A DNA stretch of 18,480 nucleotides from a virus (Duplodnaviria; Heunggongvirae; Uroviricota; Caudoviricetes): the IMG/VR virus record IMGVR_UViG_2734482533_000002, one strand, 5' to 3'. Positions within the stretch are counted from its first letter, which is position 1, and each line of letters starts with the position of its first letter. The position numbers and the translations under genes are program-made. Shown here piece after piece: positions 1-18,480 of this stretch. The notes under the pieces are model-generated. The model was not told the origin of the DNA. It saw nothing but the letters and a program-made list of their open reading frames with translations, and did not search any database.

Positions 1-1774
1 CATGCTGCACGGCAGTGATGGCATACGTGCCGTCATCGTTCTCACGGATACTCACACAGCGGAACAGGCGCTGGCGCAACGTCGGCAGCTTCAGCCCCCA
101 CACGCTGTATTCAGCAACGCCGTCAGGAACACGGCTCACTTTCACCTTCACGCCGTCGGTGACGGACTGAACCTCCACGCTGACCGGATTGCCACTTCCG
201 TCAACCAGGCTTATCAGCATGGTACCGGAGGATGGCAGCGTGATTTCACGGTCGAGCGTCAGCGTCCGGGTCTGGCTGTTTACCGCCAGCACGCGCCCGC
301 CGATGCTGATACCCGCATAGTCATCATCACAGATTTCAATGACATCGCCCGGCACATGGCGAAGCCCTTCTGCGCCCACGCTGAAGTCCACGGTCTGCGT
401 TTCCAGCAGTTCTGTTTTAATCAGCCACAGCCCGGCGCGGTGTGCCTGCCCCCGGCTGGTACAGCCAAAAGCATCCATCTTCGTGACGTTACGACCGTAA
501 CGGGCAATGGCCTGCGTATCCTCCACAAGCTCTGTCGCCGTCTCCCAGCCGTTATCCGGGTCAATCCAGTTCACCTCAACGGCATTATGGCGGTCTTTCA
601 GGGCGCTGAAGCTGTAGCGGAACGGCGCGCCATCATCCGGCATCACCACATTACTGCGGTTATAGGTCCACACCTTATCCGACGGTCGGTCCTGCACGAA
701 CGTCAGCGTCTGCCCGTTCCATACCGGCATACAGCGCATCGCCGAGCAGAAATCACTGAGCACATCCCACGCCTTGCGCTGTGTGGTCAGGTACGCATTA
801 CAGGTGATGCGCGGCTCCGTGCCGCCAAAGCCGTCCGGCACTGACTGGTCGCAGTACTGGCCGATGACATACAGCGCCCATTTGTCCACATCCGCCGCAC
901 CAAGACGTTTCCCCATGCCGTAGCGCGGGTGGGTCAGCATATCCCACAGACACCAGGCCATGTTGTTGCTGTATGCTGGTTTTAACGTTCCGTCCCAGAT
1001 ACCGCTGTATTGTCGCGTCTGCGGGTTATAGTTCGACGGCACCTGCAGAATGCGCCCGCGAAGATGATAATTACGACTCACCTGCTGGCTGCCGAACTGC
1101 TCCGAGTCCACCTGTACGCCGACCAGTGCAGTGTTCGGGTAGCACTGTTTCACATCGATGATTTCGGTGTATGACGACCAGAGCGTTTTGTTCTGCAGCT
1201 GGTCTGTGGTGCTGTCCGGTGTCATCCTGCGCATCCGGATACTGAACGGGCGCGGAGGCAGGTTATCCACCACCACCGAGACCAGATACTGCGAGGTGGT
1301 TTTGCCCTTAATGGTGATGTCTTTTTCCGTCACCCAGCCACCGTTACGCTGTATCTGAACCAGCAGGCGGACTTCCGACGGATTCCTGTCTCCCTTTGAG
1401 GTGGTTTCCACCAGTGCCTGTACACCGAAGGTAAAGCGCAGACGGTCGATGTTTGCCGACGTGATGGTCCGGGTGATCGGCGTGTCATATTTCACTTCCG
1501 TACCCAGCACCGTCTCGGAGCCGGAGGATTCAAACCCCTCCGGCGGTGACTGCTCCTGCTCACCTGCCCGGAACACCACCGTGACGCCGGAGATGTTGGT
1601 ATTCCCCTCACTGTCCAGCACCGGCGTACTGTTCAGCAGCACGCTTTTTAATCCATCCACCGGACCTTCAACCGGCCCTTCGCTGATGGCATCGATCACA
1701 CTCAGCAGCTGCGTGGACTTCAGGTTGTCCTTCGCTTCGCGCGGGGTATGCCCCTTACTGCTGCCTTTACCCAT
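1..1774 (-). CDS. J: Tail tip / central tail fibre protein J, N-terminal ~591 codons; the 3' part of the gene lies beyond the window start
   Basis: Minus-strand frame is open from position 1 to ATG at 1774-1772 with GGAG about 9 nt upstream. Translation begins MGKGSSKGHTPREAKDNLKSTQLLSVIDAISEGPVEGPVDG and at the window edge reads CVSIRENDDGTYAITAVQH, both recognised as lambda gpJ. Absent from the ORF track because there is no stop inside the window. Confidence 0.9.
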   Translation of the reverse strand, partial: MGKGSSKGHTPREAKDNLKSTQLLSVIDAISEGPVEGPVDGLKSVLLNSTPVLDSEGNTNISGVTVVFRAGEQEQSPPEGFESSGSETVLGTEVKYDTPITRTITSANIDRLRFTFGVQALVETTSKGDRNPSEVRLLVQIQRNGGWVTEKDITIKGKTTSQYLVSVVVDNLPPRPFSIRMRRMTPDSTTDQLQNKTLWSSYTEIIDVKQCYPNTALVGVQVDSEQFGSQQVSRNYHLRGRILQVPSNYNPQTRQYSGIWDGTLKPAYSNNMAWCLWDMLTHPRYGMGKRLGAADVDKWALYVIGQYCDQSVPDGFGGTEPRITCNAYLTTQRKAWDVLSDFCSAMRCMPVWNGQTLTFVQDRPSDKVWTYNRSNVVMPDDGAPFRYSFSALKDRHNAVEVNWIDPDNGWETATELVEDTQAIARYGRNVTKMDAFGCTSRGQAHRAGLWLIKTELLETQTVDFSVGAEGLRHVPGDVIEICDDDYAGISIGGRVLAVNSQTRTLTLDREITLPSSGTMLISLVDGSGNPVSVEVQSVTDGVKVKVSRVPDGVAEYSVWGLKLPTLRQRLFRCVSIRENDDGTYAITAVQH

Positions 1775-1834
1775 TCGTCATGCTCCATAAACGATAAAAC
1801 CGCCCGGAGGCGATTTCACATAAAACATTTTGCA

Positions 1835-2506
1835 TCAGCGACCAATCACCACAACCTGACCACCGTCCCCTTCGTCTGCCGTGCTGATCTCCTGAGATAC
1901 CACACGTGACCCCACGCGCATTTCACCATACAGAACAGGCATAACATTGCCCTGGGCAACCATGTTATCCAGTGAGGAGAAATAGGTGTTCTGCTTACCG
2001 TTATCCGTTGTCTGTGTGCGGGGAGTTCTGGCTTTCGGTGCCAGCATCTGAGCCACACCGCCGAGCACCATACTGGCACCGAGAGAAAACAGAATGCCGG
2101 TCATACCACCGGCACCAATGGCAGCCCCCCATGCTGCAAGGGTGGCTCCGGCGGTAAAGAATGATCCGGCAATGGCGGCTGCTCCCAGGACAATCTGGAA
2201 TACACCACCTGACTTGGCCCCGGCGACTCTGGGAACAATATGAATCACAGCGCCGTCAGGCAGAGCCTCATGTAACTGTGCCGTTAATCCGGACGTGCTA
2301 ACATCCTGCCCGGCAATACGCACCTGATACCAGCCGTCGCTCAGCTTCTGACGAAACGCAGGGAGCTGTGTGGCCATCGCCCGGATGGCTTCGGCACCCG
2401 TTTTCACACGAAGGTCGATGCGGCGGCCAAATCGTTGCAAATCCCCGTAAAGGCAGATGCGTGCCATGCCCGGTGACGCCAGAGGGAGTGTGTGCGTCGC
2501 TGCCAT
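1835..2506 (-). CDS. I: Tail tip assembly protein I (223 aa)
   Basis: ORF track 1835..2506; sequence MAATHTLPLASPGMARICLYGDLQRFGRRIDLRV... with Gly/Ala-rich hydrophobic centre recognised as lambda gpI; same length as lambda I; 60-bp spacer to J start. Confidence 0.9.
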   Translation of the reverse strand: MAATHTLPLASPGMARICLYGDLQRFGRRIDLRVKTGAEAIRAMATQLPAFRQKLSDGWYQVRIAGQDVSTSGLTAQLHEALPDGAVIHIVPRVAGAKSGGVFQIVLGAAAIAGSFFTAGATLAAWGAAIGAGGMTGILFSLGASMVLGGVAQMLAPKARTPRTQTTDNGKQNTYFSSLDNMVAQGNVMPVLYGEMRVGSRVVSQEISTADEGDGGQVVVIGR

Positions 2507-3003
2507 TTGTCGGTATACCTCTCTCGTTTGCTCAGTTGTTCAGGAATATGGTGCAGCAGCTCGCCGTCACCACAGTAAATGGCGGCATGATTCGGCACCG
2601 ATGAACCAAAACAGCACAGCAGCACATCGCCCGGCTGCGCCGCTGACAACGGCACCTGATACAGCCCTGTGGCCTCCAGATTATCCAGATAGAGATTCTG
2701 ACCGTGACGCCACCAGTCATCCTCACGATGAAAATCCGGCATCTCAATCCCCGCCAGATGGTAAGCATCCCGGAACAGCGTGTAACAGTCCGTCACCCCG
2801 TGCTCAAAGCGCCGCCCGGTAAGATGTGGCACACAGCGGAACTTGTGAATCGCCCCCCGGCAGACCAGCCACCACGGCAAATCACTCTGCACCTGCAGCC
2901 GCCGGTCGGCCTCACTCAGCCAGGGCAGACCACCGGGGTGGCTGTGGACCAGTGCCACAATCTCACCCTGCATCTCTGCCTGCAGCCAGTCTTCCGGCGA
3001 CAT
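2404..3003 (-). CDS. K: Tail tip assembly protein K (199 aa by lambda convention; frame stays open upstream to the N gap)
   Basis: Portion of ORF 2404..3456 after the N run. From ATG at 3003-3001 reads MSPEDWLQAEMQGEIVALVHSHPGG..., recognised as lambda gpK. GGAGG lies ~11 nt upstream (long spacing). The same frame is open a further 28 codons up to the gap edge at 3087, so the true start could lie upstream. Confidence 0.8.
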   Translation of the reverse strand: MSPEDWLQAEMQGEIVALVHSHPGGLPWLSEADRRLQVQSDLPWWLVCRGAIHKFRCVPHLTGRRFEHGVTDCYTLFRDAYHLAGIEMPDFHREDDWWRHGQNLYLDNLEATGLYQVPLSAAQPGDVLLCCFGSSVPNHAAIYCGDGELLHHIPEQLSKRERYTDKWQRRTHSLWRHRAWHASAFTGICNDLAAASTFV

Positions 3004-3087
3004 ACGGAAATACGCCTCCGGCTCACCGGAGATATTCACGCAGGGGAAATATCTTTCCCCCTCCGGCGTTCTTACCACGAAGCCGCA

Positions 3088-3373
3088 NNNNNNNNNNNNN
3101 NNNNNNNNNNNNNNNNNNNNNNNNNNNNNNNNNNNNNNNNNNNNNNNNNNNNNNNNNNNNNNNNNNNNNNNNNNNNNNNNNNNNNNNNNNNNNNNNNNNN
3201 NNNNNNNNNNNNNNNNNNNNNNNNNNNNNNNNNNNNNNNNNNNNNNNNNNNNNNNNNNNNNNNNNNNNNNNNNNNNNNNNNNNNNNNNNNNNNNNNNNNN
3301 NNNNNNNNNNNNNNNNNNNNNNNNNNNNNNNNNNNNNNNNNNNNNNNNNNNNNNNNNNNNNNNNNNNNNNNNN
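3088..3373. other. Run of 286 N (assembly gap or masked sequence)
   Basis: Directly visible: unbroken n from 3088 to 3373. Falls inside the L-K region of the tail gene cluster. Confidence 1.
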
Positions 3374-3895
3374 GGTGCAGGTGTTGGCCAGCATGATACG
3401 TCCCGGAAAAACAGCGCCATCTGTTTCCGTCGGCGTGGACAGTACAAAAGAGGCACTCACCGCGCTCAGTTCGCTGCACTGCTCAATGCGCCAGCGGCTG
3501 ATCACCTCCTGCTCCGGATCGGCGTCACTGTTTCCGTTGACGAAGTTCACCGCATCCAGAAAACGGGCGTAAACCTTACGCCGGACCACCGTTCCGCCGA
3601 CCAGACTCTGTAGATCTTCCGCCATCCCGGTGACCATACCGTACAGGTTAGAAACCATCAGCGTGGGGCGCGTACTGGTGCCTTTGCCATTCAGTTCAAA
3701 ACCACTCCCCTGAATGGGATACGGCTGATACTGTCGCCCCTGCCAGGTGACCGGCTCACCTTTTTCGTTCTGCTCATTACAGAAAAAATAACGTTCTCCA
3801 CCGACCTCTGTCAGATCGATTTCCCAGAGCACCACGCTGGCCGACTGCTCCGCACGGGTGCATTCATTCAGTGTTTCCTGCCGGATATCCTGCAT
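3374..3895 (-). CDS. L: Tail tip assembly protein L, N-terminal 174 codons visible; 3' end lies in the N gap
   Basis: ORF 3023..3895 starts MQDIRQETLNECTRAEQSASVVLWEIDLTEVGGERYFFCNEQNEKGEPVTWQGRQYQPYPIQGSGFELNGKG... recognised as lambda gpL. The reading after the N run is out-of-frame noise. Start overlaps M stop by 1 nt. Confidence 0.85.
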
Positions 3896-12906: not shown

Positions 12907-16587
<3,681 letters not shown>

Positions 16588-16613
<26 letters not shown>

Positions 16614-17133
16614 TCAGCAACCCCGGTATCAGTTCATCCAGCGCGGCTGCTTTGTTCATGGCTTTGATGATATCCCGTTTCAGGAAATCAACATGTCGGT
16701 TTTCCAGTTCCGGAAAACGCCGCTGCACCGACAGGGGGATCCCGTCGAGAATACTGGCAATTTCACCTGCGATCCGCGACAGCACGAAAGTACAGAATGC
16801 GGTTTCCACCACTTCAGCGGAGTCTCTGGCATTTTTCAGCTCCTGTGCGTCGGCCTGCGCACGCGTAAGTCGATGGCGTTCGTACTCAATAGTCCCTGGC
16901 TGGAGATCTGTCTCGCTGGCCTGCCGCAGTTCTTCAACTTCCCGGCGCAGCTTTTCGTTCTCAATTTCAGCATCCCTTTCGGCATACCATCTTATAACGG
17001 CGGCAGAGTCATAAAGCACCTCATTACCCTTGCCACCGCCTCGCAGAACGGGCATTCCCTGTTCCTGCCAGTTCTGAATGGTACGGATACTCGCACCGAA
17101 AATGTCAGCCAGCTGCTTTTTGTTGACTTCCAT
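16588..17133 (-). CDS. Nu1: Terminase small subunit Nu1 (181 aa)
   Basis: ORF track 16588..17133; MEVNKKQLADIFGASIRTIQNWQEQGMPVLRGGGKGNEVLYDSAAVIRWYAERDAEIENEKLRR... recognised as lambda gpNu1, with winged-HTH N-terminus. Confidence 0.95.
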
Positions 17134-17310
17134 TGTTCATTCCACGGACAAAAACAGAGAAAGGAAACGACAGAGGCCAAAAAGCCCGTTTTCAGCACCT
17201 GTCGTTTCCTTTCTTTTCAGGGGGTGTTTTAAATAAAAACATTAGGTTACGGCGAAGAAGAACGGAAACGCCTTAAACCGGAAAATTGTCATAAATAGCG
17301 AAAACCCGCG
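17134..17310. other. cosB-like terminase-binding region with three Nu1-binding R elements and an AT-rich IHF-type segment
   Basis: Between the Nu1 start and the cohesive-end core: GGAAACGACAG (17163-17173), its inverted copy CTGTCGTTTCC (17189-17199), and a third related CGGAAACGCC (17263-17272), with an A/T-rich stretch ttttaaataaaaacattagg (17227-17246) between them. This matches the lambda cosB R1-R2-I1-R3 layout as I recall it. Confidence 0.7.
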
Positions 17311-17322
17311 CGCCTTCCGCCC
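17311..17322. other. cosN cohesive-end core (12 nt), variant relative to canonical lambda
   Basis: In lambda orientation the region reads ...GATCCGACAGGTTACG GGGCGGAAGGCG CGCGGGTTTTCGCTATTTATGACAATTTTCCGG. The flanks match lambda cos as I recall it, but the 12-nt core is GGGCGGAAGGCG rather than GGGCGGCGACCT. Confidence 0.6.
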
Positions 17323-17358
17323 CGTAACCTGTCGGATCGCCGGAAAGGACCCGCAAAA

Positions 17359-17373
17359 TGATAATAATTATCA
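17359..17373. promoter_or_regulatory. Perfect 15-bp palindrome TGATAAT-A-ATTATCA, matching the 7-1-7 Fur-box consensus
   Basis: Directly visible: tgataataattatca at 17359-17373, each 7-nt arm the exact reverse complement of the other. Lies about 40 bp from cosN and about 150 bp upstream of the plus-strand RHH-like ORF. Confidence 0.45.
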
Positions 17374-17521
17374 TCTACATGTCACAACGTGCATCTACGC
17401 CATCAAACCACGTCAAATAATCAATTATGACGCAGGTATCGTATTAATTGATCTGCATCAACTTAACGTAAAAACAACTTCAGACAATACAAATCAGCGA
17501 CACTGAATACAGGGCAACCTC

Positions 17522-17755
17522 ATGTCAACGAAGAACAGAACCCGCAGAACAACAACCCGCAACATCCGCTTTCCTAACCAAATGATTGAACAAATTAACA
17601 TCGCTCTTGTTCAAAAAGGGTCCGGGAATTTCTCAGCCTGGGTCATTGAAGCCTGCCGCCGGAGACTGTGCTCAGAAAAAAGAGTTTCGCCTGAAGCAAA
17701 CAAAGAAAAGAGTGACATTACTGAATTGCTCAGAAAACAGGTTAGACCAGATTGA
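17522..17755 (+). CDS. Small basic ribbon-helix-helix (Arc/Mnt-like) putative DNA-binding protein (77 aa)
   Basis: ORF track 17522..17755. After a basic Thr/Arg-rich N-terminus, RNIRFPNQMIEQINIALVQKG-SGNFSAWVIEACRRRL fits the RHH strand-helix-helix pattern (compare Arc PQFNLRWPREVLDLVRKVAEENGRSVNSEIYQRVMESF). Weak SD (AGGG ~10 nt upstream); AT-rich composition. Confidence 0.5.
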   Translation: MSTKNRTRRTTTRNIRFPNQMIEQINIALVQKGSGNFSAWVIEACRRRLCSEKRVSPEANKEKSDITELLRKQVRPD

Positions 17756-17812
17756 AGCAATTTAGATAATCGTGCAGACTACGCCCCCTCATATCACATG
17801 GAAGGTACTACA

Positions 17813-18223
17813 ATGGCTCAGGTTGCCATTTTTAAACAAATATTCGATAAAGTGCGAAATAATTTAAACTATCACTGGTTTTATTCTGAACTAAAACGTC
17901 ACAATGTCTCACATTACATTTACTATTTAGCCACAGAGAATATTCATCTTGTTCTTGAAAACGATAATACGGTTTTAATAAAAGGACAGGGTAAGGTTGT
18001 AAATGTAAGATTTTCAAAAAATAAATGCCTTATAGAAGCCACCTTAAAAGGATTCAAATCAGGAGAGTTATCATTTTACGAATACAGGAAAAATCTTGCT
18101 ACAGCAGGGGTTTTCAGATGGATTACAAATATCCACGAAAACAAAAGGTATTACTATACCTTTGATAATTCATTACTCTTTACTGAGAACATACAGAACA
18201 CTACACAAATATTTCCGCACTAA
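17813..18223 (+). CDS. DUF1398 family prophage protein, YbcV/YdfO-like (136 aa from ATG 17813; track ORF starts at 17798)
   Basis: ORF 17798..18223; the second ATG at 17813 has GGAAGG 7 nt upstream. Product [58 protein letters not shown]...[25 protein letters not shown] resembles, by recall, the E. coli cryptic-prophage proteins YbcV/YdfO (DUF1398). AT-rich codon usage typical of a moron. Confidence 0.7.
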
Positions 18224-18268
18224 ATCATAACGTCCGGTTTCTTCCGTGCCAGAACCGGACTCGCTGGC

Positions 18269-18478
18269 ATGATGAAATATGTGTACCCGGTAACCCCGGT
18301 GTGCATCGTTTTTGATTATTCCCGCACACTCGCGCAGAAGGAGTTCCCCGTCGGGCTACGGTCTCTGTTAATACGGGAATACGGCGACGATTGGATTTGC
18401 CCCTATATTTCCAGACATCTGTTATCACTTAACCCATTACAAGCCCGCTGCCGCAGATATTCCCGTGGCGAGCGATAA
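18269..18478 (+). CDS. Hypothetical protein, open to the window end; weak call
   Basis: ORF track 18269..18478 (MMKYVYPVTPVCIVFDYSRTLAQKEFPVGLRSLLIREYGDDWICPYIS...), no stop before the window end, no convincing SD, no recognised homology. Overlaps a minus-strand ORF (18225..18428) that looks less protein-like. Confidence 0.2.
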   Translation: MMKYVYPVTPVCIVFDYSRTLAQKEFPVGLRSLLIREYGDDWICPYISRHLLSLNPLQARCRRYSRGER

Positions 18479-18480
18479 CC

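Follow-up and report, generated by a model that had tools for sequence, protein, structure and literature searches.

The window, i.e., the whole 18,480-nt stretch of DNA that was analysed, carries a lambda-like prophage in reverse reading direction, the structural genes of which appear as uninterrupted open reading frames (ORFs). The large terminase gene precedes nu1, the gene of the small terminase subunit, and the cos features were placed by alignment with the K-12 prophage DLP12 and with phage DE3/lambda, together with the 'cos site' annotated in DE3. Among 5,426 complete E. coli genomes, 4,449 gave a match to the segment 17100-17560, and 3,306 of these contain most of it. The features of the region, in window coordinates, are as follows.

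16588-17133, minus strand: nu1/nohD-type small terminase subunit gene, assigned from annotated relatives
17153-17219, minus strand: cosB inverted repeat, from RNA folding (z = -2.8)
17311-17322, minus strand: cosN, the 12-nt cohesive-end segment (GGGCGGAAGGCG on the minus strand), aligning with the DE3 'cos site'
17346-17352, minus strand: cosQ (GGGTCCT on the minus strand, AGGACCC on the plus strand), aligning with lambda 48473-48479
17354-17379, no strand assigned: putative extended Fur cluster, comprising a 19-bp match (17354-17372) and a conserved cos-distal hexamer (17374-17379)
17358-17385, minus strand: sigma-70-like match directed toward cos/nu1, with 10 of 12 consensus matches only
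17359-17373, no strand assigned: predicted core Fur box TGATAATAATTATCA, from sequence, identical to the K-12 DLP12 site
17522-17755, plus strand: ORF of the YnfO/YlcI family (DUF3950, 77 aa; PF13132, E = 2e-20)
17798-18223, plus strand: DUF1398 ORF (YdfO/YbcV family, 141 aa; PF07166, E = 3e-43)

The 15-mer TGATAATAATTATCA at 17359-17373 is a perfect 7-1-7 palindrome with its central A at 17366. The initial annotation had described it as an exact match to the 7-1-7 Fur box, and both the sequence and the shuffling statistics agree with that description. All 14 specified positions of the 7-1-7 motif TGATAATnATTATCA are matched, and the 15-mer with up to three mismatches occurs four times against 0.15 expected from dinucleotide shuffles of the window, none of which reached four matches. 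The 19-bp Fur consensus GATAATGATAATCATTATC is matched at 16 of 19 positions at 17354-17372, for which 200 shuffles gave an expectation of 0.00. A further 7-1-7 match with three mismatches (AGATAGTAATTAGCA, 16495-16509) lies in the terminase coding region, at the A/nu1 overlap, and was judged to be due to chance. The surroundings of the box are indeed AT-rich, as had been noted, with 36% G+C in 17354-17521 compared with 55% in the whole window. As the box lies 6 bp from cosQ and 148 nt upstream of the 77-aa ORF, its earlier placement between cos and the accessory genes is correct. The box is outside the 7-bp cosQ, the same heptamer GGGTCCT being annotated as cosQ in the phage 434 record, and 233 nt separate its centre (17366) from the start codon of nu1. 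Within the same module, cosN of the window (GGGCGGAAGGCG) differs from that of lambda (GGGCGGCGACCT) at five of the last six positions; this variant also occurs in six of the other loci collected here (L003, L079, L085, L104, L141 and L147), and it is consistent with the tolerance reported for positions 7-12 of the cosN overhang (PMC4669245).

The same element is present in two prophages of E. coli K-12, in which it has a published history. DLP12 carries the identical 15-mer and, in the alignment with the window, at least 40 bp of identical cos-distal flank, and the sole nearby difference is found on the cosQ side, 6 nt from the box. The boxes of Qin, lambda and DE3 differ from the window box at the central base only. 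In NC_000913.3 the box centres are at 580601 (DLP12) and 1636600 (Qin), each 233 nt upstream of the start of nohD and nohA, respectively. Published work files these sites under nohA and nohB (PMC2189734, PMC3688515). The nohB Fur cluster scores 25.3 bits at coordinate 579824, the third-highest value in Table 4 of Chen et al. (2007, PMC2189734), where the site is attributed to a 1994 Fur titration assay in which multicopy clones titrated Fur; we adopted this published value of the core-identical DLP12 sequence as the bit score of the window box. The nohA site (22.3 bits at 1634624) is overlapped by a 12.6-bit site that is displaced by 6 bp away from the gene, on the cos-distal side; the nohA site came from an in vivo selection, and an oligonucleotide carrying it was gel-shifted by 150 nM Fur (PMC2189734). 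In an FNR ChIP-seq study a peak summit at 1634625 coincides with the Qin box (1636600 corresponding to 1634624 of Chen et al.), and nohA is listed there among the Fur-repressed operons (PMC3688515). The nohA gene coordinates of Chen et al. (2007) reproduce the 233-nt offset exactly, and the relation 579824 + 777 = 580601 would reflect a shift between genome versions. Table 4 of that paper prints '-133' for nohB; the coordinate fits -233, so the printed value is apparently a slip.

Judged by sequence and position, the window box is the orthologue of these K-12 nohB/nohD and nohA boxes (Stojiljkovic 1994; Vassinova & Kozyrev 2000; Chen 2007), with which it shares both the 233-nt offset from the start of the Nu1 homologue and the 6 bp to cosQ. 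There is no material difference between them, except that the K-12 copies are cryptic remnants and that the cosN overhang of the window differs. Since Fur binding has been published for these homologues, it may be assumed for the window with high confidence. The call of a Fur box is thereby borne out, because the identical DLP12 sequence and the one-base Qin variant are themselves published Fur sites (titration, selection and gel shift), and the palindrome is very probably a real and very strong site for Fur, the iron-sensing repressor. By analogy, the cos-distal hexamer 17374-17379 is where one would expect a second Fur site, overlapping the first at a distance of 6 bp. The Fur site itself is thus already known and has been documented in E. 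coli K-12 since 1994.

We then compared the position of the box across lambda-type cos sites. About 280 loci were gathered via the Nu1 protein or via the cosQ-N20-cosN core alone, and were collapsed to 68 independent upstream contexts. The box (up to three mismatches) occurs within about 11 nt of cosQ in 42 of the 68 contexts, usually at 3-7 nt. With up to two mismatches it was found within 12 nt of cosQ in 35 of the 68 contexts, compared with 2 matches in 79,764 other upstream positions; the gaps to cosQ in these 35 contexts are 3-7 nt with a peak at 5, apart from two outliers at 10 and 11. The number of mismatches next to cosQ is bimodal among 122 sites anchored on cosQ and cosN, with 0-3 in 86 sites, 6-10 in 36 and none with 4-5. 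In 21 independent contexts with unrelated flanks, the box has an information content of 1.46 bits per column, the T-run toward cosQ one of 1.09 and the cos-distal hexamer one of 0.83, compared with 0.19 in the far flank. The box is perfect in lambda, 434 and phi80, has one mismatch in PhiR12_1 and the Stx1a phages, and is degenerate yet palindromic in N15; Gifsy-1 has no box beside its cosQ-cosN. Outside these phages it was found in Citrobacter, Kluyvera, Kosakonia, Dryocola, Phytobacter, Klebsiella and Buttiauxella.

No box accompanies 36 of the 122 cosQ-cosN sites or 26 of the 68 contexts, and in these 26 contexts unrelated sequence abuts cosQ. A cos site is therefore possible without the box, and whatever role the box has is dispensable. 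Several of the 26 box-less contexts carry an intrinsic terminator next to cosQ in place of the box. In four loci (L156, L164, L166 and L250) a GC-rich hairpin followed by a T-run (e.g., ggccggagaaatccggcttttttgc) abuts cosQ, where others have the Fur box.

Compensatory changes are absent and the central base is free to vary, which points to selection on a protein-binding sequence rather than on an RNA hairpin. Polymorphism within families was uninformative, as the whole region is nearly invariant there and the box was constrained by the way in which the loci were selected. As to conservation in related prophages, which the initial annotation had proposed to check, the box is kept beside cosQ in 42 of 68 contexts; it is inherited and conserved with the cos packaging module, and not with the accessory genes.

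Some individual arrangements were also recorded. In a Buttiauxella locus (L031), TGATAATCATTATCA is present twice without a mismatch, at 12-66 nt upstream of cosQ; the starts of the two copies are 41 nt apart, and the proximal copy lies 5 nt from cosQ. A Kosakonia locus (L053, positions 1-3483) has a gene for an AlpA-like regulator, then a perfect box-cosQ-cosN and then a 171-aa TerS-like gene whose product is 39% identical to Nu1; the gene that follows is not a large terminase gene, and capsid-like ORFs lie upstream. A Superficieibacter locus (L050) likewise has an AlpA-like gene, followed by a degenerate box (four mismatches), cosQ and cosN. The arrangement of these last two loci looks like that of a phage satellite that has kept the Fur box with its cos.

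The collection also extended to very distant loci (Nu1 identity 29-61%), in 12 of 16 of which an exact GGGTCCT is present 45-201 nt upstream of the TerS-like (Nu1-like) gene (L056, L058, L062-L064 and L067-L073). The taxa represented are Rhodobacteraceae, Azomonas, Desulfobacteraceae, Ferrimonas and Hahellaceae, and in the Rhodobacteraceae loci that pass the cosN-anchored filter (L067, L069, L070, L071 and L073) a G-rich, cosN-like stretch follows. Because the heptamer recurs in this way, cosQ seems to be conserved far outside Enterobacterales; none of the distant Nu1-like loci has a Fur box. Other loci (L009-L017, L024, L025, L035, L040, L041, L048 and others) are contigs in assemblies of unrelated bacteria, among them Kitasatospora, Chromatium, Paenibacillus, Oceanobacillus, Shewanella and Pseudomonas, with a Nu1 that is 98% identical to the query. 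Many such contigs are short or end no more than about 200 nt from the gene, and they are most likely contamination with lambda control DNA.

In a promoter scan, the box was overlapped by a single sigma-70-like match, which lies on the minus strand and points toward cos and nu1. It consists of a -35 GTGACA (17385-17380), a 16-nt spacer and a -10 TATCAT (17363-17358), the latter lying almost wholly within the box (17359-17363 of 17358-17363). By alignment, the same promoter match reaches about 8 of 12 positions in lambda and Qin, and across the 21 contexts no conserved -35 was found in either direction (at most 0.4 bits). A Fur-repressed promoter may therefore not be the feature under selection. 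Further along toward nu1, the RNA of the cosB repeat is predicted to form a hairpin of 25 bp that is followed by UCUGUUUUUGU and lies just ahead of the nu1 ribosome-binding site, and with a hairpin and U-tract in this position much un-antiterminated transcript may stop there. An Rfam scan of 16500-18480 returned only sub-threshold miRNA-type matches, which are spurious and caused by the cosB hairpin.

We propose that the box is the prophage copy of a Fur operator that lambda-type phages carry next to cosQ. Iron-loaded Fur, as inferred from the published homologous sites, would occupy the 7-1-7 core together with an overlapping second site, displaced by 6 bp away from cos. Under iron-replete conditions it would cover the -10 TATCAT of the minus-strand promoter, whose transcript would begin at about cosQ and read through cosN and cosB toward nu1. 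More generally, bound Fur could act as a block at the edge of cosQ, so that Fur would work by promoter occlusion in this E. coli family and as a roadblock in general. Either way, un-antiterminated transcription would be kept out of cos and the terminase genes nu1-A, with the cosB hairpin and its U-tract as a possible second barrier, while late transcription from the phage late promoter would be expected to pass. The terminators that abut cosQ in box-less phages would do an equivalent job. We give an even chance to the proposal that Fur at the cosQ edge gates, in response to iron, the transcription that would run into cos and the terminase genes. The regulated direction (toward cos and nu1) and the purpose of such control, which we place at or slightly below the midpoint between doubt and belief, are much less certain than the binding of Fur. 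What also speaks against a gate is that it is not obvious why iron should control entry into cos.

The initial annotation had looked to the other side of the box and proposed that Fur controls the accessory genes in the lysogen. Here the box would serve as a Fur operator at a promoter that drives the YnfO-like (DUF3950) and DUF1398 genes, a reading that we consider rather unlikely. The 77-aa ORF, 75 of whose 77 residues are identical to K-12 YnfO, is the gene previously termed RHH-like, and the box does lie 148 nt upstream of it in an intergenic stretch of 36% G+C. Among the 42 contexts with a box, 10 have a YlcI/YnfO gene within 1.2 kb (3 of them also a DUF1398 gene), and ylcI/ynfO is always accompanied by the box (10 of 10 contexts, compared with 0 of the 26 box-less ones). 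The homologues always point away from cos, most of them with starts about 170-180 nt from cosQ, and, owing to the palindrome, the hexamers GATAAT and TATCAT also face the plus strand. However, ylcI always sits in one conserved block, its start about 170-220 nt from cosQ (one near 590), and the remaining 32 of the 42 box contexts have neither gene. The closest upstream ORF in other genera is often oriented toward cos, with its end 30-60 nt short of cosQ, such ORFs being tail-tip-like, AlpA-like or without a family match, and in the Stx1a phages and PhiR12_1 the upstream neighbour is Rz, the box lying in the short Rz-to-cos spacer. The scan, moreover, gave no plus-strand sigma-70-like promoter near the box, and the best -35 candidates found by eye match only 3 of 6 positions. 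K-12 ybcV (DUF1398) is strongly down under copper stress while iron-uptake genes are up, which is a weak argument against this reading, as DLP12 has ybcW in between. With neither gene present in 32 of 42 box contexts and other neighbours elsewhere, the accessory genes do not explain the box, and without a plus-strand promoter the YnfO-like and DUF1398 genes are unsupported as the reason for its presence. Control of the ynfO-like gene by the box in this particular prophage is nonetheless possible.

The tight linkage to cosQ raises the question of a role in packaging itself. In this reading, which is unlikely on the present evidence, the box would be an optional accessory subsite of cos, at which a bound protein (Fur, judging by the sequence) would sit ahead of cosQ on the side from which the motor arrives. 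The bound protein might slow the motor, or aid cosQ recognition by terminase and the nicking of cosN, in the manner of IHF at cosB; we regard these details, too, as a long shot. The position of the box 3-7 nt from cosQ in nearly all box contexts, whatever lies upstream, fits such a role, as do its retention in minimal Rz-cos spacers and in the satellite-like Kosakonia element with only a TerS-like gene, and the lack of a conserved promoter alongside it. The phi80 record, furthermore, labels 55 bp including the box as 'cosQ; aka R4 region'. On the other hand, the box is missing beside cosQ-cosN in 26 of 68 contexts and in Gifsy-1, the box-cosQ spacing varies by non-helical steps, and the lambda Keio screen does not name fur as one of its host genes. 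Saturation mutagenesis by Wieczorek and Feiss in 2001 reportedly limits cosQ to 7 bp, which also counts against a packaging role. The earlier suggestion that the box is part of the cosQ-side packaging signal does not hold in that form, given that the box lies outside the 7-bp cosQ and that 26 of 68 contexts do without it.

It is very improbable that the box is a decoy, by which replicating phage copies would sequester Fur and relieve the repression of host iron uptake in the lytic phase: the sites were first found because multicopy clones titrate Fur, and this site is among the strongest Fur sites in the E. coli genome, but a decoy leaves the fixed position beside cosQ unexplained. An operator for the adjacent YnfO-like, putative ribbon-helix-helix (RHH) protein, the other alternative in the initial annotation, is scarcely credible: the palindrome does adjoin the gene of a small, possibly DNA-binding protein, whose single-sequence structure prediction (pLDDT 55) shows a helix-helix pattern compatible with RHH at low confidence, but Pfam gives DUF3950 only, a comparison with PDB sequences gave no significant match, the sequence is a textbook Fur box with known Fur binding, and the idea fails on the same ground as the accessory-gene target, the gene being absent from 32 of the 42 box contexts.

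We therefore retain the iron-dependent gate at the cosQ edge as the preferred reading. The notable part of these observations is the context, i.e., that even the cos region of lambda contains a Fur box and that its position near cosQ is maintained irrespective of the neighbouring genes, and only this systematic linkage to cosQ has discovery potential. In the searchable literature we found no discussion of the box-cosQ linkage, lambda included. It is tempting to speculate that lambda-type cos has an optional fourth subsite in the Fur box, through which Fur and iron would modulate either the termination of packaging at cosQ or the entry of transcription into the terminase genes, although we give this only a slim chance. 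If the linkage does mean that Fur or iron acts in packaging or in the expression of terminase, one of the best-studied packaging systems has a host input that was overlooked; if the box only silences stray transcription, it is ordinary.

Phage lambda itself carries the same element at bp 48452-48466 (TGATAATCATTATCA in the lambda orientation), in the same position by its cosQ (48473-48479). The lambda box differs from that of the window at the central base, and the promoter-like hexamers are weaker in lambda (GTGATA/TATCAC). A search of the literature gave nothing linking Fur with lambda cos or Nu1, and the prophage-transcriptome literature that we examined contained nothing on Fur or cos. The stx1 promoter of Shiga-toxin phages, to which the initial annotation had drawn an analogy, is likewise a case of a Fur box on a lambdoid prophage. 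The target of that box is a toxin gene of the late region, a long way from cos. The Stx1a phages examined here have a separate box with one mismatch (TGATAATGGTTATCA) next to cosQ, in a spacer of roughly 200 nt after an Rz-like ORF. The closest parallel within the packaging region is the IHF site I1 in lambda cosB, which is likewise bound by a host protein. That I1 takes part in the initiation of packaging has been demonstrated (PMC4669245), in contrast to the Fur box, for which a packaging role is hypothetical; should the box indeed be a fourth cos subsite, Fur would be the second host factor at cos, alongside IHF.
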